DNA of 64,000 nt from Candidatus Pelearchaeum maunauluense (GTDB lineage: Archaea; Thermoproteota; Nitrososphaeria_A; Caldarchaeales; Caldarchaeaceae): NCBI GenBank assembly GCA_030059675.1, contig JANVYQ010000001.1, forward strand, positions 288,001-352,000, in the 5' to 3' direction. Shown here piece by piece: positions 1,606-36,601 of this stretch (positions within the stretch are counted from its first letter, which is position 1; the number at the start of each line of letters is the position of its first letter). The notes under the pieces are model-generated. The model saw only the letters and a program-made list of their open reading frames with translations, was not told the origin of the DNA and searched no databases. Made by a program: the position numbers and the translations under genes.

Positions 1606-2367
1606 CTATATGAAGCTGACTGTCTCCACCTCCTTAAACTGTGATGGTATCCTCCTGTATTTGGGGCGTGGTGTGGGGTATGATGTTCTGCTGTGGCTTA
1701 TGCCCATAGACACTAGCATCTCCGCATACTTGACCTGCGCTATCCCAGGGTCTATGACAGGTATCCCAACAGCATCCTGAACCTCCCGCGCCATTCCAAT
1801 CATACCCGTGCATCCAAGTATAGCCACATCAGCCCCATCCTGCTCAACAGCCTTACGCGTCTCCTCCACAAGGAGGCGCCTAACCTCATCCCGCTTCTTC
1901 TCCAAATCCAAGACAGGGACATTAACATAACGGACTGAAGCAAGCCTATGGTTAAACCCATACTCCCTAACCTTCCTGGAGAAGAGGGGTAGAGTCTCTT
2001 TCAAGACCGTTACTATTGAGAATTTCTCACCAAGAGTGGATGCTATGCTCATCGTGGCTATGAGTGGGCCTACCACAGGCTTGTTCACCGCCTCGCGTAC
2101 CGAGTGGAGCGCGGGGTCTCCCATACAGTCTATTATTATCGCGTCATAATCCTGCTTCGCCGCGCGTACTGCTTTCTCAACTATCCAGGGCGCGGCCAGC
2201 TCCTCATCAATATATGTCTCTATTGAAGCTGGTCCGAAATCCAGCGCGTCTACGACGAACTTTGTTCCTGGGCTTACTGCACGCTTAATCTCCTCCCACG
2301 TGACTGGCTCTAAGTCGCTGTTCTTCAGGATTGGGAGCAGCACGTATAGTTTCATGTTGCGGCTCAC
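1606..2367 (-). CDS. Asp/Glu/hydantoin racemase family protein
   Basis: GPASIE, IIDCMGDP and LGCTGM motifs carrying the two catalytic Cys. Confidence 0.88.
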   Translation of the reverse strand: MSRNMKLYVLLPILKNSDLEPVTWEEIKRAVSPGTKFVVDALDFGPASIETYIDEELAAPWIVEKAVRAAKQDYDAIIIDCMGDPALHSVREAVNKPVVGPLIATMSIASTLGEKFSIVTVLKETLPLFSRKVREYGFNHRLASVRYVNVPVLDLEKKRDEVRRLLVEETRKAVEQDGADVAILGCTGMIGMAREVQDAVGIPVIDPGIAQVKYAEMLVSMGISHSRTSYPTPRPKYRRIPSQFKEVETVSFI

Positions 2368-2445
2368 TCGCTAAACTTCGGAAAGATACTTTATATATCT
2401 TTCTTTAAGATTATTAGAAAATATATGGTCGTTGCTTAGGGTATT

Positions 2446-4035
2446 TTATGCCTGGAGCTCGCCGGCAGCCTTGATGCGCACGCGGACGGCGTTGCTGGGT
2501 AAGTATGTCAGGAAGACCTCGTCAATGTCCACGACTTCTACAGTATCCTTCTTAGCTCCAGCTTTAACGGCCTCCTCCACCGCGAGTTGTTTAGCGCGGT
2601 TCATGACCTCGCTCCTGCTCGTGTTGTCCAGTGAGAAGACCTTCTCAATCTCGCCTCCAACCTGGGCTATCGCCGCGCCGAGGGCGTTGGCGTACTGGAA
2701 TGCCTGCGGCCTAATCACCTTAGACACGCCCCTGATGGAGTCGTACCTCTCAGGGGGTATGATTATCCCGCCGCCCCCGACGAGAACCATGGGCATATCC
2801 TCCTTCCGCGTCTTCACACGCTCAACAGCATCCTCAAGCATGGCCACTATCTTGTTCGCAACCCTCTCCAGCGTTGGGCGGTCTAGGCTCTTTAGACGCT
2901 CAGGCTTCACGTTGGGCTCTTCTATCCTGGCGTAGCCCAGCGCTATCGCCACGTCGGTAGTGGTGAGCGTGTCCCCTCCCCACGCGATCGCGCGCTTCTC
3001 CAGCTCGTAGCCGACGCTCTCAGGTCCTATGCTGAAGCCGTCTCCAGAGAGCTTGACGACAGTTCCGCCGCCGCAGCCGAAGGATACTAGGTCTGGCATT
3101 CTGAAGTTTGTGCGCACACCGCCAACCTCAACTGCCGCGGCAGACTGGCGTGGGAAACCGTTAACCAGCATGCCAGCGAGCATCGTGGTGCCCCCAATAT
3201 CAACCACTATCGCATCTTTGAGGTTCGTCAGGAATGAGGCGCCCCTAAAGCTGTTGGTCGGGCCAGAAGCTATCGTGAGTATCGGATACTGCTTCGCGTA
3301 CTCAACAGACATGAGCGTCCCGTCGTTCTGCGAGAAGTAGAGCTTTGCATGGATGTCGCGCTCCTCGCATGCTTTCTGTATCGCTTCGGTGGCTGACTGA
3401 GCCACCTTAAACAGCGCAGCGTTAAGTATCGTCGCGTTCTCCCTCTCAATCAGCCCTATCCTGCCTATCTTATGCGAGAGCGAGATATGGACACCATCTC
3501 CAGCCAGCTCGCGGATTATGTCATGGACGCGCTGCTCCTGCTCTGGTATGACTGGAGAGAAGACCCCAGATACCGCGAATGCTTCTGCGCCCTTCTGGAG
3601 AGCGTCCCTCACAGCGGCCCTAACCTCACCATCGCTAAACTCCCCTATCTTCCTACCATCATAGTCGTAGCCGCCCTTCACCGTGTACCAAAGCTCGCCG
3701 CCGAGAGCGCTGCGCAGGTCGTGTGGCCACCTATACATGGGCGGGATAGCCTTCCCAGCAGGCTCGCAGATACGTATAACAGCAACACGCGCGAGCCTCC
3801 TCCTCTCGGTAATCGCGTTTATACAGTGAGTAGTCCCAATCATCACATACCTTATATCAGAGACGGAAACGCCGCTGGTCTCCAACGCCAAGTCAAGGCT
3901 GGCGATTATCCCCTGAGTAACGTCTGGCGTGGTGTTCGTCTTCACCGCCGCTATAATCTCGTTCTTATCCGAGACTATGACCGCATCAGTATGCGTGCCG
4001 CCCACGTCAATACCAACCTTCAACGCCATACACAA
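2446..4035 (-). CDS. Hydantoinase/oxoprolinase A family protein
   Basis: GIDVGGTHTD, SGPTNS, VVDIGGTT and NALGAA motifs. Confidence 0.9.
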   Translation of the reverse strand: MCMALKVGIDVGGTHTDAVIVSDKNEIIAAVKTNTTPDVTQGIIASLDLALETSGVSVSDIRYVMIGTTHCINAITERRRLARVAVIRICEPAGKAIPPMYRWPHDLRSALGGELWYTVKGGYDYDGRKIGEFSDGEVRAAVRDALQKGAEAFAVSGVFSPVIPEQEQRVHDIIRELAGDGVHISLSHKIGRIGLIERENATILNAALFKVAQSATEAIQKACEERDIHAKLYFSQNDGTLMSVEYAKQYPILTIASGPTNSFRGASFLTNLKDAIVVDIGGTTMLAGMLVNGFPRQSAAAVEVGGVRTNFRMPDLVSFGCGGGTVVKLSGDGFSIGPESVGYELEKRAIAWGGDTLTTTDVAIALGYARIEEPNVKPERLKSLDRPTLERVANKIVAMLEDAVERVKTRKEDMPMVLVGGGGIIIPPERYDSIRGVSKVIRPQAFQYANALGAAIAQVGGEIEKVFSLDNTSRSEVMNRAKQLAVEEAVKAGAKKDTVEVVDIDEVFLTYLPSNAVRVRIKAAGELQA

Positions 4036-5199
4036 TCACCCAAGCCTCTCACGGTACTTCTTCTCCTTCTCAGGCGGGAGGCGGGCTCTCCGATAATACT
4101 CCCTATGGAGCAGCTCCAGCGGCGTGAAGTCAAAGTCGTAGCCAAAGTATCTGGGGCCCCATACCTTTAGAGCCTCTGGAGTCCTCATTATCTCTGGTGT
4201 CGGTATTCCTATCACCATGACCCTGAAGCCGTAACGTAGGTTCTCCGTCGTTATCGGGAGAGCTCTCTCCATGTCTAGTATTGAGATTATGTCTGGGACT
4301 GAGGCGATTACTTTCCCGTCAACCTTGGCCACGAGGTTCTCGTTTTGGAATGTGATTGAGAGCCTGCTTCCCTGATACTCGTCCAGCCCCTCTATCTCCA
4401 CGCGGCCTACTGCGAAGCCAGCGGTGGTTTGCCTCTCTATGTCTATAATCTTCCCGCGGAAGAGCGGTATGGCCTTCCCGTAGTTCGTCTCCTCGGTAAC
4501 CTCCATAACCCTCTCCAGCGGCGTCTTCCCCGTCTTTGCCGCATGTCGTATAGCGTCGCCTATCTTTATCGCTAGCGAGACGCTGTAGTGTATCCCGGTT
4601 CTCTTCACCTGCTCGCCTGTCATGGCGTACTCGGCCAGGTGGGAGGCGCCTCCCATCCTGATTGTGATTCCGCGCGCGAGCCACTCAAGCTGGTAGTTAT
4701 CTACCGACTCTATGATGCATGAGTTTCCACGCTCATCGGACACGACGGCGGGAGCGCCGCTTATGCCGTATATGTGGAAGGTCTCCATCTGGAGCTCCGG
4801 GAATGCTCTACCCATCCCATCTGCATCAACCACTGGAAGCCCAGTCCTCGCGGCCACGTTGAACGGCATCGTAGAGTTTATCCCGCCAGACTCAATCGGC
4901 ATAGTGGCGTCTGCCTTCCTGCCGAGATGCTTCTCCAGCTTACGCATAGACCTAACAGTCTCCTCTCCAGACGGTATCCTCTCGTTCATTATCGTTGGAG
5001 CGCCCATCATGGCCGTCGGTATGATGAACATGTCGTCTGGAATCTTGTTGGGGTCTAGAAGCTCCACCTCACCATGCTCCTCTATGGCGCGCATCGCCAT
5101 CAGCATCCCCACGTAGGGGTCTCCTCCTCCCCCAGCTCCCAATATAGCCGCTCCTATAGCTAGGCTCTCCAGCTCATCAACACCAACCTTCACAATCAA
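4036..5199 (-). CDS. DUF917 family protein (thiohydantoin desulfurase-like)
   Basis: LGAGGGGDP, ESGGINS, DADGMGRAFPELQM and FQNENL...PDII motifs; next to hydantoinase A. Confidence 0.85.
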   Translation of the reverse strand: MIVKVGVDELESLAIGAAILGAGGGGDPYVGMLMAMRAIEEHGEVELLDPNKIPDDMFIIPTAMMGAPTIMNERIPSGEETVRSMRKLEKHLGRKADATMPIESGGINSTMPFNVAARTGLPVVDADGMGRAFPELQMETFHIYGISGAPAVVSDERGNSCIIESVDNYQLEWLARGITIRMGGASHLAEYAMTGEQVKRTGIHYSVSLAIKIGDAIRHAAKTGKTPLERVMEVTEETNYGKAIPLFRGKIIDIERQTTAGFAVGRVEIEGLDEYQGSRLSITFQNENLVAKVDGKVIASVPDIISILDMERALPITTENLRYGFRVMVIGIPTPEIMRTPEALKVWGPRYFGYDFDFTPLELLHREYYRRARLPPEKEKKYRERLG

Positions 5200-9528: not shown

Positions 9529-10578
9529 TCACCAGCTCCAGAACCTCTCCACTACTACGCCGCTGCGCGGCTCCCGTATAGCGGAATATACTGCCAGGGC
9601 TAGTGAGATTACGTAGTCGTCATGCACTCCTTCGGGGGCTTCGTAGCGTGTCCCGCCCTTCCCCAGCTTCCTCTGGAACATGCTGAGATGATTTATCAGC
9701 TCAGTCGCGTCCGCTGGTATTGTTAGCCGCCTGTTCTGGATTAGGTTGCAGAGGGTAGTCTCTAGAGCTTCCTTGATGCTTGAGGTTATAGTAATCCCCT
9801 CGGTCTGCGGCAACTTTGACGCGAGCCGCTCATAGAGCGGCAGCCCCATCCCAGTCTTATCAACAGCTATGCACACAGGCCTAAGCCGCGCCCCCGCATC
9901 CTCAATAACTCTTAGCTGCTGGCTGAAGTCTGCTCCGCGGAGCTCGCGTAGGTATATTATGCGCAGGCCACCATCGGGCAGTAGCTCCACGCCCGTTATG
10001 ACCGTTGAGTCGCGGTATCTCCCGAAGTCTATGCCCATGAAGACTGGGTTCTCCACGCGCTCAGGCTCAGGAGTATAGTCCGAGACGCATGCGAGTATGG
10101 CGTCGTATGGTATGAGGGCGCCGCGCTCGTCCAGAAACTCCAGCTCCATCTCCTGCCTAAACTCGGTATGCGTTAGTATTGTGCGGAGCTCTCTAATCTC
10201 TTCCTCGCTTATGTGCCTGCATTCGGAGTAGTGAGCGCTGTGTAGGCTCCAGCCCTTTTTCTTCCTTCCCGCTTGGTATGCTTCGTAGAACCAGCCTCTC
10301 TTTCCCTTTGGTGTGGAGATTAGCGTTATCCTCCCGCGTTGGGCTGTTGTTGTGAAGGCTGTCGCTGTCTTGAGCTGGAAGTCGTCTCTGAACATGGCTG
10401 CCTCGTCTATGTAGATGTGGTCGGCGCGGTAGCCTCTCACGCCATCAGGGTTGTTGGGCAGGCTAACTATCCGCGAGCTGTTTGGAAACTCCACACGCGT
10501 CCGCGTCTCGCTCACAACAGCGCTGAAACGATACACCTCACCCTCAAAACGGATGCTAACATCCTGGAAGCTCCTCAA
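9529..10578 (-). pseudogene. Phage terminase large subunit, N-terminally truncated (provirus remnant)
   Basis: Walker B GVRGYRADHIYIDEAA, LISTPKG..GWFY, nuclease motifs MGIDFGRYRDST, VDKTGMG and HDDYVISLALA; no Walker A present. Confidence 0.85.
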
Positions 10579-11260
10579 GAGCTCGCCGCGTGGCTTCTAG
10601 AGAGCTTATGAGCAGGCCGTGAAGAGAGCCAGCGACGTTCCCAGCGTCAACGCCCAGCTTTGACAGGATTTTCCTGAACTCCTCGTTGGTTACTATCCCG
10701 TCCCGCATTGCGTCTGCAAGGCCTTCAACCGTGTTGAGCAGTAGCTTACTGGACTCGCCCGCGCCCAGTAGCTGGAGCTGTAGAGCCTGCTGAACCATGC
10801 TGTATGTTTGGGTTATGTAGTTGAGCAGCGACGCAGGCGCTGCTAGTCTCTCCCTGCTACGCCTAGCCTCCTCCGTGAGCTCCACATCGTAGCCCAGCGC
10901 CTTACTAACCGCGACGACCACGTCGTAGAAGTCTGATGCAACCACTACCGCGCTGCCTAATGCTGCGAAGCCCTTGGATGCTCTCTCAACGGCCTGCACC
11001 AGCTCCTCAAGCTGCCTACGCGCTTCTTCAGCGCCTGCGCTTAGCGTGTTGAGCTGCTCAGCCCCAAGCTCGGCGAGTTGCCTAAGACCTTCTGGAACGG
11101 CCTCGCCAGCCTGCTCAGCTTCAGCCATCGACTCGCGTATATCATCCATGAGTATGCCAAGAGGCTCAGCCATCTTCAGGACTTCCTGCCGCGTGAGCCT
11201 CCTCATCTCAACCCGCGCGCGTATCCACCTACCAGCCTCCTCCTCGGTAATCCTACCCAA
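10556..11260 (-). pseudogene. Ala/Glu/Leu-rich helical fragment, possibly part of a tail tape-measure protein
   Basis: Long amphipathic/coiled-coil composition; abuts the terminase fragment; no clear start. Confidence 0.4.
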
Positions 11261-11706
11261 GACATTCAGCTCCCCCTCAATCTTGCCCAGGAGCTGGTCA
11301 ACTTCATAGACAGGCTGGTGGCGGAGGAGGAGTTTAGGAACATAGACGACGTATGCCGTTACTATGGGCTCTCAAAGGAGTGGTACTACTCCCTCCGCAG
11401 GGCGGTCAAGATACGCAGGCGGCTAGACCACGATACAAGCGGTCTGCCAGTATCCACGCTCTCCCTGATAGAACGCTCAAACTACCAGCAGACAGGAAGC
11501 AGGGGCTCACACAAGCCCTCGCCGAAGAGCAGCTACCACGCGAAGCCGTGAAGCAAATCGTAGAGAGGATGGAGGAAAAACCAACAATAACAGCGGCGGA
11601 AGCAGTAGAAGAGCAGAAATCACACGAACCACAGAAAATAGAAGAAGGCTTCATAGAGGTGGAGGGAAGACTAACCTACAAATCAAGAGAACAGGAAGAA
11701 CAATAA
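11250..11706 (+). pseudogene. Frameshifted helical/HTH-like fragment of the provirus remnant
   Basis: ORFs 11078-11551 and 11353-11706 join near 11480 into ...VCRYYGLSKEWYYSLRRA...LSLIER/KLPADRKQGLTQAL... Confidence 0.4.
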
Positions 11707-11841
11707 CAATAACAGCACAAGACCCCAAACAACAAACAACAACTAACAATACCAGCAGAAGACCTCCCAATAATCAGAAGGCTTATCCAAGAAATAATAT
11801 AGAAAAGTTATATTAGGGTAGGTCATCTCTGAACCTGGGAT

Positions 11842-12133
11842 TTGGGCCTCAATTAAAATAAACGAGGACACGAAGAGAGCATTAGAGAAGCTAAGAGCTA
11901 AGGTCATCCTCTCAACAGGCATGAAGATAACGCAACAGGAATTGCTTGATGCTATGGTAAGTTTTTCTGAAGAAAGGGAAGAAGAGCTTATACGCTATCT
12001 CTCAGGGGTAAGACTACCTCTTCCGCCTGACGAGCTTAAGAAGCTACTAAGCATACCAGTTGATTGAGGTGTAGAGACAAGCGAAGAGGACATAGACAAA
12101 ATTTTATATGGAAAGGCTGAGAAAAAGCAATGA
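11842..12133 (+). pseudogene. VapB-type antitoxin with premature TGA
   Basis: Manual translation ASIKINEDTKRALEKLRAKV...ITQQELLDAMV...PVD*GVETSEEDIDKILYG; stop abuts the PIN gene. Confidence 0.65.
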
Positions 12134-12543
12134 GTGTTTCTAGATTCAAATGTGTTTATAGCATTTTACAATAAACGGGACTCTAATCATACACGCGCTG
12201 TTGAGTTAATAAATATGATAGCCAACGCTGATTTAGGCACTCCATATACCTCTGATTACATATTTGATGAAGCAGTGACTACCGCGTTAGCAAGAACTGG
12301 TAGGATGACTATAGCCCTTAACTTGGGCAGAATGATATTAGGAGAGATTACAAAGCCATTTGTGACTATGCTTAAGGTTGATGAAGATGCGTTTAGAATG
12401 GCCTGGCTATTTTTCAAAAATACCATAGAAAAACATTGAGCTTCACAGATTGCACATCTATAGCGCTCATGAAGCTAAGAAAAATAGAATATATTGTGAG
12501 CTTTGATTTAGATTTTGATGGAATAGTAAAAAGGGTCTACTAA
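12134..12543 (+). pseudogene. VapC PIN-domain toxin, frameshifted
   Basis: FLDSNVF, TSDYIFDEAVT; after an A-run at about 12416-12420 the other frame gives LSFTDCTSIALM...SFDLDFDG*. Confidence 0.8.
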
Positions 12544-12577
12544 ACCTTTATTCAGTATTATTGTGTTTGTTTTTGTG

Positions 12578-12970
12578 ATGTTGCGGGTTGGTGATAGGGC
12601 TAGTTATACGAAGACGATAACCGCTGAGGATATCCGAGCCTACGCTGAGCTGACTGGCGATAAGAACCCCCTGCACCTTGACGAGGAATACGCCAAGAAT
12701 ACGCGCTTTGGCAGGGTTATCGCGCATGGTATGCTCACCGCTAGCCTAATCTCAGCCGTTATCGGAACGAGGCTTCCAGGGCCTGGGGCGATTTACTTGG
12801 AGCAGAGGCTGCGTTTTACGAGGCCTGTCTATCCTGGTGATACTATTACCGCTGAGGTGGAGGTTGTGGAGTTTCGCGAGGAGAAGGGGGTTGTGAGGCT
12901 TAGGACTGACTGCCTAAACCAGCGTGGTGAGCGGGTGATAGAGGGTGAGGCTGTTCTCCTGCTTAGATAG
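12578..12970 (+). CDS. MaoC/PhaJ-like (R)-specific enoyl-CoA hydratase
   Basis: Hydratase-2 motif YAELTGDKNPLHLD, IAHGML, RFTRPVYPGD. Confidence 0.88.
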   Translation: MLRVGDRASYTKTITAEDIRAYAELTGDKNPLHLDEEYAKNTRFGRVIAHGMLTASLISAVIGTRLPGPGAIYLEQRLRFTRPVYPGDTITAEVEVVEFREEKGVVRLRTDCLNQRGERVIEGEAVLLLR

Positions 12971-12988
12971 AATAACATTATTATATAG

Positions 12989-14443
12989 ATGGCTGAAGCT
13001 AACGCGGCGTGGATGAGCCAGGCCTGGCCTCCTGTTTATGACGACAGCTACCTACCGCCGATGGATGAGCGGTACTGGTTTAGGGGTGTGGAGACGCTCA
13101 AGCCGCGTGAGCGTGAAAGGCTAATCCTTGAGAAGCTACGCGCACAGGTTCGCTACTGCTGGGAGAACTCCCCCTTCTATCGTAGGAAGTGGAGGGAGGC
13201 GGGTGTCTCCCCAGACACGCTAAAGAGCCTTGAAGACCTGCGTAAATTCCCCTTCACCACGAAGGAAGAGTATAGGCGCGACCAGTCTGAGAACCCGCCC
13301 TTCGGCTCAAACCTCTGCATACCGCGCGAGAGGATATTCACCGTTCATGGGACAAGCGGGACGACTGGCAAGCCTGGTGTGTTCGCGTTAAGCTATGATG
13401 ATGTTAGGAGGGTTGCGAATGCTCACGCGCGTATTATGTGGGGTTTTGGGCTTAGGCCGCGTGATACTGTGATGATAGCCGCGTTCTTCAGCCTGTATAT
13501 AGGGAGCTGGGGCGTGCTGTGGGGGGTTAATAGGCTAGGCGCCAAGGCATTCCCATTCGGCGCTGGCGCTCCAGGCCAGACGAGGATGGGCGTGAGGTGG
13601 GCAAGAGAGCTGAAGCCAACAGCACTATACGGAACATTCTCATACATCCTCCACTTCGCGGAGGTCGCGTATGAGGAGGGGATAGACCCGCAGAGAGACT
13701 TCAACTTCAGAATAATCTTCACCTCTGGAGAGCCAGGGGCGGCTCTGCCGACGATGAAGGAGAAGATAGCCAAGATATTCGGGGCCAAGCTGGTTGATAC
13801 AGGCTCAACAGCTGAGATGACGCCATGGATGACCAACGCGGAATGCGAGGAGACATGCGGGATGCACCTATGGCAGGACATAGTATACACGGAGGTGATA
13901 GACCCCAAGACGGGTGAGGTGGTTGACTACGGCGAGGAGGGCGTCCTAGTATATACGCATCTTGAGCGCGACACGCAGCCCATGATACGCTTCTGGTCAA
14001 ACGACATTACGCGATGGATAGACGAGCCCTGCGAGTGTGGAAGGACTTATCCACGTCTCCCGAAGGGGATTTACGGCAGGCTGGATGACATGCTCATTAT
14101 ACGTGGTGAGAATGTCTTTCCAAGCGCTGTTCAGGAGGCGCTTGAGTCTGTTGAGGGCTATGGGGGTGAGCATCAGATAATCATCACGCGGGAGAGGAGT
14201 ATGGATGTCTTGATTGTGCACGCCGAGTATAGCGAGGCGTACGCGAGGCGGGCTGAGCTTGAGCCTGCCCTGCTGGAGAAGCTCCGCGAGAAGATGAAGC
14301 AGAGCATAAGAGCCAAGTGCGGCGTCTCCGCGGTTGTTGAGCTCGTGCCGCCGAAGACGTTTGACAGGACGCAGCTAAAGGCTAGACGCGTAATAGACCA
14401 GCGCGAGCTCTATGAGGAGCTTAAGAGTCTACGAAAGGCCTAG
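12989..14443 (+). CDS. PaaK-family acyl-CoA ligase resembling 2-hydroxyisobutyrate-CoA ligase (HCL)
   Basis: HGTSGTTGKP, SGEPG, GRLDDM; HCL-like segments YLPP..RYWF, ANAHARIMWG, FSLY.GSWG, AKAFPFGAGAPG, YTHLER..QPMIR (reference recalled, not aligned). Confidence 0.8.
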   Translation: MAEANAAWMSQAWPPVYDDSYLPPMDERYWFRGVETLKPRERERLILEKLRAQVRYCWENSPFYRRKWREAGVSPDTLKSLEDLRKFPFTTKEEYRRDQSENPPFGSNLCIPRERIFTVHGTSGTTGKPGVFALSYDDVRRVANAHARIMWGFGLRPRDTVMIAAFFSLYIGSWGVLWGVNRLGAKAFPFGAGAPGQTRMGVRWARELKPTALYGTFSYILHFAEVAYEEGIDPQRDFNFRIIFTSGEPGAALPTMKEKIAKIFGAKLVDTGSTAEMTPWMTNAECEETCGMHLWQDIVYTEVIDPKTGEVVDYGEEGVLVYTHLERDTQPMIRFWSNDITRWIDEPCECGRTYPRLPKGIYGRLDDMLIIRGENVFPSAVQEALESVEGYGGEHQIIITRERSMDVLIVHAEYSEAYARRAELEPALLEKLREKMKQSIRAKCGVSAVVELVPPKTFDRTQLKARRVIDQRELYEELKSLRKA

Positions 14444-14456
14444 CAACCTGCTCACG

Positions 14457-14849
14457 TCATGCTAGAGACCGTATCGTGCTCAGTATCCTTGAGAGCTGGG
14501 AGCCTGGTGGGAAGACCTCCTTAACCCCCAGCTGCTTGAGCCACTCAGCCTCGTTAGGCGGTATTATGCCGCCGACGATTACGGGTATGTCCGCGCCCTC
14601 CCTCTTCAAAAGCTCCAAAACCTCAGGAACCCTTACGTGGTGCATGCCCTGCATAGAGCTTATCCCAATTACATCCACATCCTCGTCAATAGCTACGCGG
14701 ACTATCGTCTCTGGGAGGGCGTATCCGAGGAAGATTATCTCAACACCGTTGTCGCGTAGGTAGCGGGCAACCATCCTAATTCCTACGTCGTGTATATCCA
14801 CACCCAGCTTTGCGAGCAGTACGCGCGGCCTTCGCCACGTCATGCTCAT
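14457..14849 (-). CDS. B12-binding small subunit of an acyl-CoA mutase
   Basis: DxHxxG motif (GVDIHDVG), IGISS, VIVGGIIP, VFPPG. Confidence 0.92.
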   Translation of the reverse strand: MSMTWRRPRVLLAKLGVDIHDVGIRMVARYLRDNGVEIIFLGYALPETIVRVAIDEDVDVIGISSMQGMHHVRVPEVLELLKREGADIPVIVGGIIPPNEAEWLKQLGVKEVFPPGSQLSRILSTIRSLA

Positions 14850-16549
14850 CCCCAGGCCAAGGCCTGCTGAGTCCCATAAACCTCGCGGAATACCTCGTAT
14901 ATCTCGCCCACCGTAGCGTATGCTGATGCAGCCTCTATCGCGTACGGCGTTAGGTTCTTGTTCTGCCTAGCAGCCTCGCGAAGCTCCTCAAGACGCGCCC
15001 TAACAGCCTCATCATTCCTCATGCGCTTCACGTATCTAACACGCTCCACCTGTTTCTCCTCAAGCTCCAACGTAACGCGGAGAAGCTCTATGTCAGGCTT
15101 CTCAGAGCCGCGCGCCTGGTAGATATTCACACCCACGACGGGAATCTCTCCACTCTCTATCTTAAGCAGCGTCTCATACCTAGAGTCGCTTATCTCCTTA
15201 CGCGGAAGCTGTCTCCTCGTAGCCTCAAGCATCCCGCCTATGGCTTCTATCTCATCCAGCTTCCTCCAGATTGCCTCCTCCACACGCTTGGTGAGGTACT
15301 CAACATAATACGAGCCAGCGAGGGGGTCTACGACGTTGGCCACACCCGTCTCGTAGAAGAGGATTTGCTGAGTTCTTAAAGCTATGCGCGCGGCCTTCTC
15401 AGTGGGCAGGCCTAGAGCCTCGTCCATCGCGTCGGTGTGGAGAGACTGAACACCGCCTAGAACCGCGGCGAGAGCGTGGTACGCTGTCCTTACAATATTG
15501 TTCTCAGGCTCCTGAGCCGTGAGCGCAACGCCCGAAGTCTGGGCGTGGAACTTAAACAGCCACGAACGCGGGTCTCGCGCCTTATACCGCTCGCGCATAA
15601 GCTTAGCCCAGACCTTCCGCATAGCCCTGAACTTGGCCACCTCCTCAAAGAAGTCGTTATGGACGCATAGGAAGAATGAGATGTGCCTAGCCGCTTGGTC
15701 TGCTGTTAGGCCGCGCCTCATGGCCTCTTCAACATAGACCATCGCATCGGCAATCGTGAATGCGGCCTCCTGTACCGCCGTAGCCCCAGCCTCGCGGAGC
15801 TGGTAGCCGCATACACTTATCGCATACCAGCGCGGCATGTTATACGCACACCACTCCAGAAGGTCAACCGAGAGCTTCAGAGCAGGCTCAAGGGGGAGAG
15901 GCGGGTTCCCAACATGGAAGAGCATCAGCGTATCGTTCTGAGTAGTCCCGCCTATCTTGCTCACATCAAGGCCACGCTTCCTAGCCATAGCGACAAACAT
16001 GGCGAAAATCGGCATACCAACGAAGTAGGTTATGAGGGAGGTGGTTATCCTATCAATCGGAATATCCTCAAAAGCAGTCTCCATATCATAGAGCGAGCTT
16101 ATCGGACTACCGCCCTGCCCAACCTCACCCCTAACACGCGGGTCGTCGGAATCATACCCGTAGATTGAAGGCGAGTCAAGAACAAGATTAAGCCCAGTCT
16201 CGCCATGCTCAAGCATAAACTTAAACCGCCTATTCGTCTCCTCAGGCGTCCCATAACCAGTAACCATCCTTATCGTCCACATCCTGCCACGATACATGTT
16301 TGGGTAGATTCCGCGCGTGTATGGATACTCTCCTGGAAAGCCTATGTCCCTGAAGTAATCTATGTCTTTCATATCTTCTGGCGTGAAGACGCGCTTTATC
16401 GGTATGCCCGACGCTGTGGTGCTCACATCGCGCTCTGGCACGCCTGTCTTCTCAATCCACTGCCGCAGCGTTATATTCTCCCAACGCTCGCGCTCGCTTT
16501 TCAGCCTCTCCAGAAAATCGCGGGAATAACCATGCTCTACTGGGGCCAA
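14846..16549 (-). CDS. Adenosylcobalamin-dependent acyl-CoA mutase large subunit with atypical specificity residues
   Basis: GEYPYTRGIYPNMYRGRMWTIR, TQND, FFEEVAKFRAMR, HAQTSG, GGVQSLHT, DPLAGSYYVE. Confidence 0.92.
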   Translation of the reverse strand: MAPVEHGYSRDFLERLKSERERWENITLRQWIEKTGVPERDVSTTASGIPIKRVFTPEDMKDIDYFRDIGFPGEYPYTRGIYPNMYRGRMWTIRMVTGYGTPEETNRRFKFMLEHGETGLNLVLDSPSIYGYDSDDPRVRGEVGQGGSPISSLYDMETAFEDIPIDRITTSLITYFVGMPIFAMFVAMARKRGLDVSKIGGTTQNDTLMLFHVGNPPLPLEPALKLSVDLLEWCAYNMPRWYAISVCGYQLREAGATAVQEAAFTIADAMVYVEEAMRRGLTADQAARHISFFLCVHNDFFEEVAKFRAMRKVWAKLMRERYKARDPRSWLFKFHAQTSGVALTAQEPENNIVRTAYHALAAVLGGVQSLHTDAMDEALGLPTEKAARIALRTQQILFYETGVANVVDPLAGSYYVEYLTKRVEEAIWRKLDEIEAIGGMLEATRRQLPRKEISDSRYETLLKIESGEIPVVGVNIYQARGSEKPDIELLRVTLELEEKQVERVRYVKRMRNDEAVRARLEELREAARQNKNLTPYAIEAASAYATVGEIYEVFREVYGTQQALAWG

Positions 16550-16643: not shown

Positions 16644-17726
16644 GTGCGGCTGGGAATCGCTGCGCTGATAGGAGCCATCACGCTAACAAGCGTGGCTACA
16701 GCGGAAAAGGATGCCGCCTACACCAAACCTGGAACCGCTGGTGCAGCCTACCCCCAGTGGACGCAAGATGGCGGGAGGATCATCTACTACCAGCGCGGCG
16801 ACATCTGGATTATCAACCTAAGAACCCTTGAGAGGAGTATGCTGGTAGTGGAGCCATACTGGGATACGCTGCCTGCCCTCTCACCTTCGGGGAGCGTCCT
16901 GGCCTTTACCTCAGAGAGAATCTACGGCGGGAGGACGACGGTCTGCCTAAAGAGGCTCAGCGAAGAAAGACTAAGATGCATAGCACCCCTAGCCGAGCTC
17001 ACCTACACATGCGGCCCACAGACATGGACAGCCAGCGGCGAGAAGCCCCTGATATGCAGCACGCGGCCAATGATAGCCGAGCAGGGAATAACATGGCTCT
17101 CAGAACTCTGGATACTGACACTCAAGACCAACAGCCATGAGCGGATAGCATCATACGTGGGCATCATATCAGCGGCGTGGTCCCAGAAGAATGGCCTCAT
17201 ACTAGTAAGCAACCGCACAAGGAAGGATGCGAATATCTGGCTCCTAAACCCAGAGACGCGCGAGAGCACCCTACTCATACGCGGCGGAAGCTACCCAGCA
17301 TGGTCTCCCAACGGGAAGCTGGTAGCATACAGCGTGGACGGCGACGTATGGGTCATGGAGCTCCACAGCCAGCGTAGATGGAGGATAACCAGCGGAGAAC
17401 ATCTTGAAACAACACCAGCATGGTCACCAGACGGGAGGCGCATAGCATACGCCAAACTAGCCCAGCCAATAGATGAAGCCACGGAGCAGGAGGGAATAAT
17501 CATAGCTGAAGCACCAGAGAAAGAGGAGAGAAAACCGCCGACGACGTTGGTTATGACCGCAGCAGCCCTAGCGGCGCTCCTAACAATCATGGCAACACGG
17601 GGCAGAAGGGCTCACGTGGAGAAGAGCCACATAGCGACGAGAGCCAGCAGAATACCCAAACCCTGCCTCAGCGTGATAGGCTCCCGAAGAACCAGAAACG
17701 CCAGCAGAATCGTAACAACTGGATAG
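16644..17726 (+). CDS. Secreted TolB-like (PD40) beta-propeller with C-terminal membrane anchor
   Basis: Signal peptide; repeated P.WSPDG/PALSPSG/PAWSPNG blades; hydrophobic tail; its 3' end overlaps the EamA gene. Confidence 0.75.
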   Translation: MRLGIAALIGAITLTSVATAEKDAAYTKPGTAGAAYPQWTQDGGRIIYYQRGDIWIINLRTLERSMLVVEPYWDTLPALSPSGSVLAFTSERIYGGRTTVCLKRLSEERLRCIAPLAELTYTCGPQTWTASGEKPLICSTRPMIAEQGITWLSELWILTLKTNSHERIASYVGIISAAWSQKNGLILVSNRTRKDANIWLLNPETRESTLLIRGGSYPAWSPNGKLVAYSVDGDVWVMELHSQRRWRITSGEHLETTPAWSPDGRRIAYAKLAQPIDEATEQEGIIIAEAPEKEERKPPTTLVMTAAALAALLTIMATRGRRAHVEKSHIATRASRIPKPCLSVIGSRRTRNASRIVTTG

Positions 17727-18043
17727 AGGGCTGTCATCGTAACCACGACAGAGGCCTTCCCCTTACTTATCGCGAAGAGGAAGAAGAGCGAGCCGAGGGT
17801 GAGGAAGACGCCAGTCAAAACACCATAGAGCACGCCGTTCACCTGCGTCTCAGGCCTAAACCCAACAAGATACAACGCCAAAAACCCAATAGCAACAGAC
17901 CCCACAACCTCATACACCAACACACTCTCAGGCCTAATGTAGTTCGTCGCCAGCTTCGGAAAGAACCCCCACAAACCACACAGCAACAACGCCAAAATAG
18001 CAAACACAAACCAACCATTTATAAAACCAACAAAAACAAACAA
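17612..18043 (-). CDS. EamA/DMT single-domain membrane transporter
   Basis: GKASVVVTMTALYPVVTILLAFLVLREPIT motif; start uncertain. Confidence 0.8.
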   Translation of the reverse strand: MFVFVGFINGWFVFAILALLLCGLWGFFPKLATNYIRPESVLVYEVVGSVAIGFLALYLVGFRPETQVNGVLYGVLTGVFLTLGSLFFLFAISKGKASVVVTMTALYPVVTILLAFLVLREPITLRQGLGILLALVAMWLFST

Positions 18044-33312: not shown

Positions 33313-34166
33313 ATGGTATCGGAGATTCTTGTTAGGTATGTTTTAAATAAGCATGAAAGACGTGATAGCTGGTTTTTAGATGATTATTCTCTTAATCCCT
33401 ATAAGCTATGTTAGGGGAAGTAAATACGGAGAGAATATGGGCAATGAGCTGGCCGTTAAGATTAACGCTCCTCTTCTCCTAAGTAAGGAGCTCACAAGAT
33501 TAGCAGCTAGAAACAAATATGGAATAATCGCTATAGGAACAGCTACAGAGCCTTGGATGAAGATAGAAGAAAAATACAAAATAACTAGAGCTTGTCTTGA
33601 GATGATCGCCAAGCATAGATTCCCAGTTCACTGCCTAACAAAATCACCTATAATTCTAAGAGATTTAGACTTGTTGAGAGAAATAGATGAATATGCTATA
33701 CTTCCTTACAACTTGAAAGAACAACTTAATCATAGAAGTATGATAACGATATCTCTATCAACGTTGGATGATTCTGTCGCAGCTATCTTTGAACCAGGCG
33801 CTCCTAAACCAACTGACCGGCTTAAGCTTTTGGGAAAAATTAAGGACGCTGGCATCTATGCTGGCATAGCTTATATCCTGTATTACCATTCATCTCAGAT
33901 TCTGATGAACAGTTAGACGAGATGTGAAGACAGCCAAGGACTCTAATGCTGATTATGTTCTCATAGGTGCATTAACGCTATATGGCGTTGGTAAGAAACT
34001 TTACTATAAACTTCTGGAAAGAAACTATCCAGAGCTACTTCCAAAATACAGAAAGTTATTCAAGCTTTTCAACCAACCACCAAAAAGTTATCAACTAACT
34101 CTGGAGAGGAAAGCAAAAATAATATGTGAGAAATATGGAATTAAGCATAGGCTTGTTAATCTTTAG
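33313..34166 (+). pseudogene. Radical SAM (SplB/Rv2578c-like) pseudogene
   Basis: MVSEILV...DSWFLDDYSLNPY then a frame change to YVRGSKYG with the CxxxCxxC region missing; GTATEPW, LTKS, FEPGAP; further breaks near 33880-33925; AT-rich. Confidence 0.75.
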
Positions 34167-34446
34167 TTACGTATATAGCATATAGAACTAACGCAAATCC
34201 TACAGCAGTTATTAACGCTTCTATTGTATGTGCAGCGACTAAACTATATTGAAAGAATTCAGATAATATGCCCTCTATTACCGCTCCTAACGTTATGAGT
34301 AGAAAAGCAACTGATAACACCACGAATGGAGGCTTGTTAGCTATCTTCTTCCTCGCCTGGTAGCTTATGTAAACTAGAATAAGCCCCGCAACGACGAGAG
34401 CCAGACGAGCTATAACGAGAGCTATGTGAAACGACATAATGCGCAC
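34156..34446 (-). CDS. Small 3-TM membrane protein
   Basis: ISYQAR...AFLLITLGAVIEG...GFALVLYAIY; paralogous to 35060-35266. Confidence 0.65.
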   Translation of the reverse strand: MRIMSFHIALVIARLALVVAGLILVYISYQARKKIANKPPFVVLSVAFLLITLGAVIEGILSEFFQYSLVAAHTIEALITAVGFALVLYAIYVTKD

Positions 34447-34458
34447 CTTAGCATCATT

Positions 34459-34746
34459 TTACAGCCTCTCTAAGAGTCCAGCGCCAACGCACCGTAAGTA
34501 TTGCAGCGATAATATTAACATGAAGAGATGATCTAAGCTAGCAGTTTCTTGGAGAAACGATGTCTTGATATTTTCCAACAACTCCGTTGGTAGACAGCCT
34601 ATTATGAATAAGAGGAGTAATGTGGGGAAATCGTTTAAAATTCTCCTACCTTTTCTAGCTCTCTTGACCACCAAAGACAGTGAGAGTATTATGGCCAGTA
34701 TGAGAACAACCATGGTGGATATATAAAATATATCTTCAACCTGCAC
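34459..34746 (-). CDS. Small membrane protein (possibly damaged)
   Basis: Hydrophobic helices; in operon; AT-rich. Confidence 0.5.
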   Translation of the reverse strand: MQVEDIFYISTMVVLILAIILSLSLVVKRARKGRRILNDFPTLLLLFIIGCLPTELLENIKTSFLQETASLDHLFMLILSLQYLRCVGAGLLERL

Positions 34747-35011
34747 GGCCTAAACGCGCCTCAACATAACTATAATATAATACAACTAGGAGTATGAGGA
34801 GAGCAGATAACAGTTCAAGCAAGGACTTTAGAAGACTTTGCTCAACGAACGCGGCAAGATTGTAAAAGCCGTGTATAAATAGTCCCAACGCAAATAGTAG
34901 GGAGAGAATGAAAAACCGCCTATTAGAACTGTAGACCAACTTAGCTAAATAGAATGGTATTATTGAGGCATACCAAACAACTAAAGCGGTAGCAAGCTGG
35001 AAATAATCCAA
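34736..35011 (-). CDS. Small 3-TM membrane protein
   Basis: Hydrophobic with LFIHGFY motif; AGGTGA RBS. Confidence 0.6.
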   Translation of the reverse strand: MDYFQLATALVVWYASIIPFYLAKLVYSSNRRFFILSLLFALGLFIHGFYNLAAFVEQSLLKSLLELLSALLILLVVLYYSYVEARLGRAG

Positions 35012-35059
35012 CTACGTCACCTTTTCATCACTATGTCTTTCTGAAAGAGTATATGAGTA

Positions 35060-35266
35060 TTAGAAAGCAAGCTTATTTTTTAAGATTTCAAAGAGAAAGC
35101 CCTCTACGAGAGACCCTAGTGTTATTAGTCCAAATCCAAGTGATACAAATAGCATCATTCTGCTTTTTACCCTTCTATAAGCACCATAGCTTACTACTAC
35201 TATTATAATTCCGAGTATAAGCACGACAAGCTTAGCAAATGTGAGAAAAATTATTTCAGAAACCAT
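35060..35266 (-). CDS. Small membrane protein, probably C-terminally truncated
   Basis: SYGAYRR...GFGLITLGSLVEG; coupled by TAATG to the upstream wHTH gene. Confidence 0.6.
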   Translation of the reverse strand: MVSEIIFLTFAKLVVLILGIIIVVVSYGAYRRVKSRMMLFVSLGFGLITLGSLVEGFLFEILKNKLAF

Positions 35267-35569
35267 TATTCCTCTCCACTCCTTAGAGAGTAAAAGCGTC
35301 TAAATGCCTTATCAATTACACCTCTATTGGGCGTAGCCTCCACCTTCAAACCTTATAGTAACGCTGCTGAATGTGCTCCTGTATAGAGAATATTTCTTCC
35401 CATCTTTACTATGTTCTATACGCTCAATAGTTAGTATCCCCTGCTCTTTAAGCTCATTCATAATCCTAAAAGCAGTTGTGTAAGGAATATCACATTCTTT
35501 TATAAGCTCAATGACACTCTTCGCCCTCACAACTGTGCTGGCTATAATCTTAGATGGGGAGTAGGACAT
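35266..35569 (-). pseudogene. Winged-HTH regulator, N-terminally truncated and frameshifted
   Basis: KSVIELIKECDIPYTTAFRIMNELKEQGIL...DGKKYSLYRS; the C-terminus VEATPNRGVIDK...EE* is in another frame. Confidence 0.7.
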
Positions 35570-35863
35570 GAATTCATGGTGGTAAAGGATAAGGATGCAA
35601 TGCTGACGGAGATAAGAGACACGGTAAATGAATTAAAAGCGCAAGGACTTGATGAAGAAGATATTGAGGGCTCGCATGAAATACACGAGATACATGAGAA
35701 ATATGCTGAGGAAGACGTTGCTGTGGAGCCTGGAGAAACTAAAACTTTCTTCCTAAAGTTTGACGCTCCAGGAACTTACTCCTACCTATGTACAGAGTTG
35801 GCAGCAACATTTCCAGATACTCATGCAGATGAGGGAATGGTTGGCAAAATAGTAGTTGAATAA
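35567..35863 (+). pseudogene. Cupredoxin (plastocyanin/azurin-like) lacking its N-terminus
   Basis: HEFMVV in frame upstream of the ATG, VEPGET, PGTYSYLC-x10-H-x4-M-GKIVVE type-1 Cu ligands; His/Glu-rich loop. Confidence 0.75.
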
Positions 35864-35989
35864 TAAAACAACTACTTTTCCTATTATCTTTTTATTCTCC
35901 AATGCATGATTATTAATGAAGTCTTGAGAGTGTGAATGCTTGCTCTAGGTGATGAATGTTCTTCATAGGTTTTGGAGGTGTGGCATCCT

Positions 35990-36601
35990 ATGAAAATGAA
36001 ATATTTAATCCCGTTGGTTGCAGCTGTGGTGGCGCTTGCTGTAGTAGGAGCTTTCTTAGCTCTTCAAGCTCTCTCAACCCCCTCATATACGCCATCAATA
36101 GAGATAGCAGGCAACCAGAAGCTCGAAGACTTCACCCTCATAGACCAGTATGAGAGAGAGTTTAGGCTCTTCTCCGTCAAGGGCAAGGTTGTCCTCCTAT
36201 ACTTCAGCTATACCAACTGCCCAGACGTATGCCCACTTGTCATGAGCAAATACGCATACCTGGCAGAGAAGCTGGGCCCAGACATAGACAAGGTTGCCAT
36301 GATACTCGTGACGACAGACCCTGAGCGCGACTCCCCAGAGGTTCTCCGCGAGTATGTTGAGCGCTACACGCCGAAGATAATCGCCCTAACTGGGCCGCGT
36401 GAGGTTCTGGAGAAGGTCTGGTACGACTATGGCATAGCCGCGAAGGCCGAGAAGCCGCAGGAGGAGGGAGGCCAGTACTTCGTAGCGCATACTGCGCTGG
36501 TCATAGTGGCTGACAAGAATATGGTTATGCGCTTTGCCTTCACGCCAGAGATGCCGCCAGAAGAGTATTTGCAGGGTGTAAAGTATCTCCTGAGCCAGTA
36601 G
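35990..36601 (+). CDS. SCO1/SenC copper chaperone
   Basis: N-terminal TM, YTNCPDVCP, DPERD, conserved His (VAHT). Confidence 0.92.
   Translation: MKMKYLIPLVAAVVALAVVGAFLALQALSTPSYTPSIEIAGNQKLEDFTLIDQYEREFRLFSVKGKVVLLYFSYTNCPDVCPLVMSKYAYLAEKLGPDIDKVAMILVTTDPERDSPEVLREYVERYTPKIIALTGPREVLEKVWYDYGIAAKAEKPQEEGGQYFVAHTALVIVADKNMVMRFAFTPEMPPEEYLQGVKYLLSQ

Follow-up and report, generated by a model that had tools for sequence, protein, structure and literature searches.

Candidatus Pelearchaeum maunauluense, a hot-spring archaeon of the Caldarchaeales, carries four genes at positions 12563-16549 of the stretch analysed here, a 64,000-nucleotide segment of contig JANVYQ010000001.1 (positions 288,001 to 352,000; hereafter the window). 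They encode an (R)-specific enoyl-coenzyme A (CoA) hydratase, an AMP-forming acyl-CoA ligase and the two subunits of an adenosylcobalamin (AdoCbl)-dependent acyl-CoA mutase. On balance, and with modest confidence, we read this module from its sequence as one that would catabolise 2-hydroxyisobutyrate (2-HIBA) or a very close 2-hydroxy-2-methyl acid, by way of 2-hydroxyisobutyryl-CoA (2-HIB-CoA), (R)-3-hydroxybutyryl-CoA and crotonyl-CoA. This pathway type is known from bacteria. The archaeal module would be a third lineage of ligase-linked B12 mutases, after HcmAB and RcmAB, with a predicted conserved pocket of its own and in thermophilic archaea.

The window is part of a 371-kb contig, and the genome (1.79 Mb) is 94% complete and 0.6% contaminated. 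Domains were assigned with Pfam and NCBIfam, and structural relatives were identified by HMMER alignment to solved structures. Read as open reading frames (ORFs), the module consists of two convergent gene pairs (Table 1). The hydratase gene lies upstream of the ligase gene on the forward strand, with a gap of 18 nt. On the opposite strand, the start of the mutase small-subunit gene overlaps the stop of the large-subunit gene by 4 nt, and the stop codons of the ligase and small-subunit genes are 13 bases apart. An earlier note on this DNA had described the four genes and quoted four mutase motifs, all of which we recovered letter for letter in the translation. Its left edge, 12578, needs correction, as the hydratase gene begins with a GTG start codon at 12563.

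Family and substrate pocket of the mutase

The window mutase belongs to the acyl-CoA mutase superfamily and has a separate cobalamin-binding subunit. The large subunit matches PF01642 with 632 bits over the entire model (positions 1-512 of 512) and TIGR00641 with 633 bits, and it falls below the NCBIfam equivalog cut-off for methylmalonyl-CoA mutase (MCM) (523 versus 876 bits). By sequence and by fold, its best solved relative is HcmA of the (S)-specific HcmAB from A. tertiaricarbonis (4r3u, 475 bits, compared to 408 bits for MCM), a system that matches it in subunit layout and in the family of its ligase partner. An AlphaFold 2 model of the large subunit (pLDDT 94.2) superposes on 4r3u_A with a TM-score of 0.95 and a root-mean-square deviation of 1.5 Å, at 40% identity. 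The small subunit matches PF02310 (91.7 bits) and TIGR00640 (120 bits), with 2yxb (104 bits) and HcmB (4r3u_C, 96 bits) as solved relatives, and its GVDIHDVG segment holds the DxHxxG motif (D18-I-H20-D-V-G23).

The large-subunit translation contains the motifs WTIRMVTGY, GLNLVLD, QNDTLMLFHVGN and GYQLRE. HMMER alignments to MCM (P. shermanii numbering) and to HcmA are gapless across the pocket stretches. V96 aligns with MCM Tyr89 and HcmA Ile90, V123 with MCM Ala116 and HcmA Asp117, G214 with MCM Arg207 and HcmA Gln208, and Q250 with MCM His244. The earlier note had placed Val, Val, Gly and Gln at these four sites by eye, and alignment to the solved enzymes supports that mapping; Tyr and Arg are not found at sites 89 and 207. 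Two further correspondences, absent from the note, pair L124 with MCM Phe117 and M209-L210 with MCM Lys202-Glu203. The pocket signature as a whole reads V96, N121, L122, V123, L124, M209, L210, F211, H212, G214 and Q250, and residues 207-213 are helical in the AlphaFold model.

In MCM, Tyr89 and Arg207 bind the substrate carboxylate. The MCM signature of Tyr89, Arg207 and His244 is replaced in the window enzyme by V96, G214 and Q250, and that of isobutyryl-CoA mutase (ICM), Phe and Gln at sites 89 and 207, by Val and Gly. MCM and ICM (including IcmF) share fold and cofactor with the window mutase, which keeps the Q204-N-D motif and Tyr249, whereas the Lys202-Glu203 pair present in all listed Phe/Gln and Tyr/Arg sequences is Met-Leu. 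Compared with 4r3u_A, the HcmA residues Ile90, Asp117 and Gln208 are V96, V123 and G214. HcmA Asp117 binds the substrate hydroxyl and sets (S)-specificity, and the window mutase has no Asp at this site. What it has instead is the mark of RcmA: V123 lies opposite the Val of the K. tusciae enzyme P0152 (clusters from our homologue search of a 5.8-billion-protein set are numbered from P0001 onward). In Weichler's work of 2015, the replacement of HcmA Asp117 by Val is said to be the defining RcmA difference.

Comparison with RcmAB

A profile scan of contigs gave four loci, among them one in an Oceanobacillus metagenome-assembled genome (L003) with the gene order GntR-MeaB-mutase L-mutase S-HCL-SDR dehydrogenase, where HCL is the 2-hydroxyisobutyrate-CoA ligase and SDR denotes the short-chain dehydrogenase/reductase type. 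The L003 mutase is 80% identical to Kyrpidia tusciae P0152 and 84% identical to a Robertmurraya massiliosenegalensis protein, and the L003 HCL-type ligase is 51.5% identical to the window ligase. Extracts of PMC7176365 and PMC11599936 describe RcmAB, a 2-HIB-CoA mutase preferring (R)-3-hydroxybutyryl-CoA, as characterised in K. tusciae and R. (Bacillus) massiliosenegalensis. Bacterial 2-HIBA degraders have an hcl–mutase–meaH–GntR operon, the type seen in L003, and this gene set is described as catabolic (PMC7176365, extract).

In RcmA-type sequences, site 89 is Ile or Leu and the Asp117 site is Val or Leu; positions 202, 207 and 244 are occupied by Met, Gly and Asn, respectively. The residue following the Asp117-site Val is Leu in three full RcmA rows (P0121/L003, P0152) and Phe in several other RCM rows. 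Pairwise alignment of the window mutase with P0152 (46% identity, 515 bits) pairs V96 with Ile, V123 with Val, L124 with Leu, M209 with Met, G214 with Gly and Q250 with Asn. The earlier note was right about the residues of what it called an unusual pocket, but the pocket has a precedent that the note overlooked: the pattern is largely that of bacterial RcmA. It had also taken the Gly to enlarge the pocket for a bulkier acid. Because RcmA, which acts on 2-HIB-CoA, has Gly at 207 as well, this residue alone is no sign of a bulkier acid.

Both RcmAB and the window enzyme are two-subunit AdoCbl mutases linked to an HCL-type ligase. In both, the Asp117 site is Val with Leu next to it, sites 202 and 207 are Met and Gly, and site 244 is a residue other than His. 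A thermophilic, geothermal setting is a further likeness (PMC7176365, extract). The window enzyme differs in its distance from RcmA at the level of sequence, in having Gln rather than Asn at 244 and in its archaeal host. The step after the mutase differs too, with an (R)-hydratase in the window versus an SDR dehydrogenase in L003.

An archaeal clade with its own pocket pattern

The window mutase lies in a small, so far uncharacterised archaeal clade that is probably separate from the HcmA and RcmA groups. Sixteen clusters (P0001-P0016) are 57-100% identical to it, and all later matches are at most 54% identical. Each of the 16 has Val, Ile or Leu at site 89, followed by (N/S)-L-(V/A/T)-L and (M/W)-(L/F)-F-H-V-(G/A)-N in the other two stretches. 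Across 13 aligned clade sequences, L122, L124, F211, H212, V213 and N215 never vary and N121 hardly does. By comparison, the 104 next-best homologues among the matches listed (P0017-P0120) have Phe or Tyr at site 89, never Val, Ile or Leu. The invariant residues of the clade, together with the Phe or Tyr of the next-best homologues, indicate that the pocket pattern is not due to chance. The His244 site is occupied by Gln in nine of the 16 clusters (P0001-P0009, window included) and by His in the other seven.

Every taxonomically labelled member of the clade is a Thermoproteota archaeon. Members include the sister species within Ca. Pelearchaeum (L001, 95% identity), Marsarchaeota G1 (L002, 77%), Geothermarchaeales (P0010, 64%) and a Thermoproteota family here called f44 (55-60%). 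The clade was found in 2 of 76 genomes from the host's class, both of the genus Ca. Pelearchaeum. A phylum-wide sample of 401 genomes contained it in 3, and among 201 genomes sampled from the class to which the Marsarchaeota genome belongs, that genome alone had it. After 50% clustering, the entire clade is one representative among 3161 family members (E ≤ 1e-30). Among other 50% representatives (P0362-P0510), aligned with a loop alignment that is unreliable by one position, we saw dozens of residue combinations at the specificity sites, including an Ile/Asp type (P0370) and a Val/Asp type (P0387). The acyl-CoA mutase family is a large uncharted specificity space in which most signatures are uncharacterised.

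The ligase

The ligase aligns end to end with the solved Aquincola HCL (2-hydroxyisobutyryl-CoA synthetase, 6hdw), scoring 549 bits, versus at most 259 bits against three solved PaaK enzymes. It falls below both NCBIfam equivalog cut-offs for PaaK (e.g. 297 versus 646 bits). In the ligase tree, a 100% branch parts the window ligase from five PaaK-like paralogues and leaves it on the HCL side, where the ligase from a genuine rcm operon of a bacterium also falls. Within that side the window ligase sits in an archaeal subclade of 10 rows (100%), nested among HCL-type ligases, a placement that sets it apart from HCL itself. These data bear out the HCL-like ligase of the earlier note, and no grouping with PaaK-like sequences was seen.

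Specific residues tell the same story. The Tyr of FSLYIGSWG and the Ser of FTSGEP align to HCL, whereas Phe and Gly stand at these sites in PaaK and in the PaaK-like paralogues of this genome; the Tyr motif is present in 117 of the 120 closest ligase homologues and the Ser motif in all 120. We take these residues to be HCL Tyr164 and Ser239, with an inferred offset in numbering. In Zahn's 2019 work, Tyr164 and Ser239 are reported to be HCL-specific, to form a small polar pocket for the acyl group and to hydrogen-bond the substrate hydroxyl. An N-terminal WPPxYD...YWF extension is common to the window ligase, the A. tertiaricarbonis HCL and HCL-type ligases and is missing from the PaaK-like paralogues, and a GAGAPG insert is shared by the window ligase and HCL.

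Linkage of mutase and ligase across genomes

In the sister species, the full four-gene order is kept at 95-97% identity (L001, read directly). An HCL-type ligase on the same contig is apparent for 8 of the 15 non-window clusters of the clade. Besides L001, one case is based on accession numbers, the Geothermarchaeales mutase and ligase being three apart (MFQ5710170.1 and MFQ5710173.1) and both on an 86,246-bp contig. The other six are mutase clusters whose longest contig has the same size as that of the top ligase match (8692, 13177, 15536, 30833, 72075 and 112740 bp). For the remaining seven clusters there were no data or the result was negative (f44). A metagenome scan with the clade alignment, which relied on generic patterns, gave among the matches listed only loci of at most 53% identity and no clade member; evidence of co-location hence comes from contig sizes and accession numbers. 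All co-located ligases fall inside the 10-row clade of the window ligase. On the Q244 side, the ligase grouping (window and P0242 with L121, P0245 and P0246) matches the mutase tree; the His244-side rows are not settled there.

In the Marsarchaeota genome, the mutase is on a 2.5-kb contig. A second contig carries a ligase at 70% identity, flanked by a MeaB gene and by a gene for a thiamine diphosphate (ThDP) enzyme. The best solved relatives of this enzyme are 2-hydroxyacyl-CoA lyases and oxalyl-CoA decarboxylases (140 bits), which points to 2-hydroxyacyl-CoA chemistry. The ligase/ThDP pair resembles an actinobacterial lyase-HCL arrangement, in a genome that also has the mutase. We considered a lyase route for the window genome and for f44 as well and set it aside, as their ThDP homologues are only ∼25-31% identical and lend it no support.

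The hydratase

The hydratase matches PF01575 with 99.5 bits, and its best solved relatives are the (R)-specific enoyl-CoA hydratases 5cpg (128 bits) and 1iq6 (114 bits). In its LTGDKNPLHLD segment, Asp33 and His38 are five residues apart, presumably corresponding to the catalytic pair of PhaJ (hydratase-2). The match to PhaJ-type enzymes agrees with the earlier note, which had called this a MaoC hydratase of (R)-specificity, and the window enzyme is accordingly predicted to be (R)-specific.

Proposed pathway and alternatives

How might these enzymes act together? By homology, the HCL-type ligase would use ATP and CoA to convert 2-HIBA to 2-HIB-CoA. The AdoCbl mutase would then shift the thioester carbon to give (R)-3-hydroxybutyryl-CoA, much as RcmAB does; the pocket and the linkage to the ligase both point this way. 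We expect the (R) product because Val replaces the (S)-determining Asp, as in RcmA, and because an (R)-specific hydratase is encoded next door. That PhaJ-type hydratase may dehydrate the product to crotonyl-CoA, as its adjacency in the genus suggests. Finally, a fused crotonase/(S)-3-hydroxyacyl-CoA dehydrogenase could take crotonyl-CoA toward acetoacetyl-CoA, with a thiolase step to acetyl-CoA assumed. The host genome encodes this fused enzyme, further crotonases and a PduO-type adenosyltransferase, so that cofactor activation and onward oxidation of crotonyl-CoA are available. The sequence of activation, rearrangement and dehydration was already proposed in the earlier note, and it is the most coherent reading of the module. 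Its dehydration step is the weakest, since the hydratase is adjacent in one genus only.

A number of observations weigh against 2-HIBA catabolism. We saw the hydratase next to the module in no genomes but the two of the genus Ca. Pelearchaeum; the one MaoC found in the Marsarchaeota genome is 31% identical and encoded on a different contig, and the f44 genomes G270 and G759 have no MaoC hydratase at E ≤ 1e-10. Unlike the RcmA operon, the window module has no adjacent MeaB or GntR gene, and the single MeaB of the genome adjoins the canonical MCM on contig 14. Five of ten f44 genomes carry the His244 form of the clade mutase, without Tyr89 and Arg207. In three of them (G270, C39, L118; G759, C16, L134; G719, C369, L135), it is the only PF01642 gene. 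Neither an HCL-type ligase nor a MaoC gene lies near the mutase in G270 or G759, and a ligase search of G270 returned only PaaK-like genes (35-37% identical), none of HCL type. MeaB adjoins the mutase in G759 and, judging by ORF lengths, apparently also in G719. Lastly, where RcmA has Ser, Val, Glu and Thr-Thr, the window mutase has N121, L122, L210 and F211-H212, respectively; as the clade departs from RcmA at invariant or nearly invariant positions, its substrate could differ.

The trees, none of which includes an HcmA sequence, add to this list. An 87-row LG+G4 tree places the clade on the same side as RcmA of a branch with 99% SH-aLRT support. This sister placement was not upheld under wider sampling: in both a 150-row FastTree and a 53-row LG+C20 PMSF tree, a 99% branch cuts RcmA off from the clade, which joins P0365 (98-99%) nearer to ICM-like, MCM and Ile/Asp-type sequences. 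An approximately unbiased (AU) test did not reject a joint clade with RcmA (ΔlnL 19.4, p = 0.147). With the placement ambiguous, the residues shared with RcmA may reflect common inheritance or convergence, and the window enzyme is not filed as a member of the RcmA family.

Several of these points would also be expected if the same chemistry served another small acid, such as 2-hydroxy-2-methylbutyrate, pivalate, lactate (giving 3-hydroxypropionyl-CoA) or another 2-hydroxyacid, a tentative alternative that would make the archaeal clade a new specificity class. N121, L122, F211 and H212 are (nearly) invariant in the clade and occur in neither RcmA nor HcmA; the clade stands apart from RcmA in the better tree; and f44 has a clade member as its only acyl-CoA mutase, while a search of one f44 genome for an HCL-type ligase found none. 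That the 50% representatives show very many pocket signatures, most of them uncharacterised, fits this alternative too, as does the promiscuous lactyl-CoA mutase activity of natural Hcm/Rcm enzymes (PMC11599936, extract). It sits less well with the ligase, whose similarity to the solved 2-HIBA ligase far exceeds that to any other solved enzyme. The ligase also keeps the Tyr and Ser that reportedly hydrogen-bond the hydroxyl of 2-HIBA. For pivalate, the product would be isovaleryl-CoA, which needs no (R)-hydratase. Moreover, another substrate presumes that N121 and H212 face it, where the model gives only a helix at 207-213.

In its strongest form, the archaeal clade would be a distinct specificity class rather than a third 2-HIB-CoA mutase, N121, F211 and H212 shaping the pocket for some other small 2-hydroxyacyl-CoA or tertiary acyl-CoA. 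We regard this as unlikely. One candidate would be a natural lactyl-CoA/3-hydroxypropionyl-CoA mutase, an activity that to our knowledge has so far been obtained only by engineering; if true, this enzyme would be the sole acyl-CoA mutase of central metabolism in some Thermoproteota.

Could the window enzyme simply be a divergent paralogue of MCM or ICM, with the ligase and hydratase unrelated to it? Clade members are named 'methylmalonyl-CoA mutase' in databases, and the fact that a clade member is the only acyl-CoA mutase gene in f44 suggests a housekeeping role there. On the other hand, the Tyr89/Arg207 of MCM and the Phe/Gln of ICM are all replaced, an HCL-type ligase is co-located again and again in the clade, and the mutase and ligase trees agree for the most part. 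Besides the window copy, the host genome has genes for two other mutase large subunits, one a canonical Tyr/Arg MCM and one a Phe/Gln protein of ICM-like type. With separate MCM and ICM-like paralogues present, the window copy is not needed for those reactions, and we find this explanation very improbable.

Least probable of all is reverse use of the module, from crotonyl-CoA through (R)-3-hydroxybutyryl-CoA to 2-HIB-CoA as, for instance, an acyl donor or product precursor: the mutase and hydratase reactions are reversible and lysine 2-hydroxyisobutyrylation is widespread, but the AMP-forming ligase of the cluster suggests that the free acid is taken up and activated, and the same gene set in bacteria is catabolic (PMC7176365, extract, for both the modification and the bacterial set).

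Genomic setting

Coordinates of the module and of other features are given in Table 1. Just upstream of the module lie a lone terminase fragment, a weak tape-measure-like ORF and a PIN-domain gene (9529-11260 (-), 12134-12439 (+)). Comparison with the sister species revealed a 13.4-kb indel in this region (window 11301/11289 versus G279:C26 821-14269). The upstream flank resembles what is left of a prophage within a variable region. An aminotransferase in the left flank is conserved in the family; a RidA-like gene in the right flank is genus-specific, and the sister assembly breaks there. The flank comparison is suggestive of a variable region and is no proof of transfer. Taken together, the patchy distribution of the mutase clade and a flank scarred by mobile elements suggest lateral acquisition.

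An EamA/DMT (drug/metabolite transporter) gene occurs ∼1 kb from the mutase in the window (17612-18043 (-)), as a half-size ORF, and directly divergent from the mutase at L118 in G270 (11607-12476 (+)). It could encode an acid transporter, or its presence could be a coincidence. Elsewhere in the window, positions 1606-5199 (-) hold a cluster for an Asp/Glu/hydantoin racemase, hydantoinase/oxoprolinase A and an S-Me-THD-like (DUF917-type) protein, adjoining genes for an ABC transporter ATPase, a DUF6092 protein and a nitroreductase. The GC content drops to 0.384 at 34001-36000, compared to about 0.50-0.58 elsewhere in the window. A look-up of matching sequencing runs listed no RNA run and only two DNA runs, both of a single study and each with a small share.

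Table 1. Positions of the module genes and of other features (window coordinates unless a genome and contig are named)
Feature	Position	Strand	Assignment or remark
PhaJ/MaoC-type (R)-specific enoyl-CoA hydratase, 135 aa	12563-12970	+	PF01575, solved relatives
HCL-type AMP-forming acyl-CoA ligase (2-hydroxyisobutyrate-CoA ligase-like), 484 aa	12989-14443	+	PF00501 + PF14535
Mutase cobalamin-binding small subunit, 130 aa	14457-14849	-	PF02310, TIGR00640
Acyl-CoA mutase large (substrate-binding) subunit, 567 aa	14846-16549	-	PF01642, TIGR00641
Terminase large-subunit fragment, 349 aa	within 9529-11260	-	PF17289, PF03237; phrog_5909 3.8e-32
ICM-like paralogue of the host genome	G000:C2:30570-32378	+	Phe/Gln signature, RLFSGY and QTDILKEFIAQKEW
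Marsarchaeota locus L121 (G401:C105)	3-1505, 1489-2919, 3713-4414	+, -, -	HCL-type ligase convergent with ThDP enzyme, MeaB GTPase nearby

Significance

We found no description of an archaeal hcl–mutase cluster or of an archaeal 2-HIB-CoA mutase in the literature, covered mainly through titles and the openings of abstracts, in line with the earlier note, which knew of no archaeal example. The word 'mutase' is absent from the main texts of two Calditenuaceae genome papers, whose supplements could still include the genes under automatically assigned names. Only a few bacteria have been shown to have a dedicated metabolism of 2-hydroxyisobutyrate, and the natural source of the substrate is described as unidentified (PMC7176365, extract). 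If 2-HIBA or a close relative is indeed the substrate of the module, the pathway would extend to a second domain of life, in the hot-spring lineages Caldarchaeales, Marsarchaeota and Geothermarchaeales, and would hint that 2-HIBA or a related acid has a natural source in geothermal settings.

There is practical interest as well. (R)-specific, thermostable mutases are sought for bio-based production of 2-HIBA. The authors of an engineered lactyl-CoA mutase call for sampling more of the natural Hcm homologues (PMC11599936, extract). A third, independently diverged pocket, for the same rearrangement or a related one, would help find the residues that set substrate and stereochemistry in this family.

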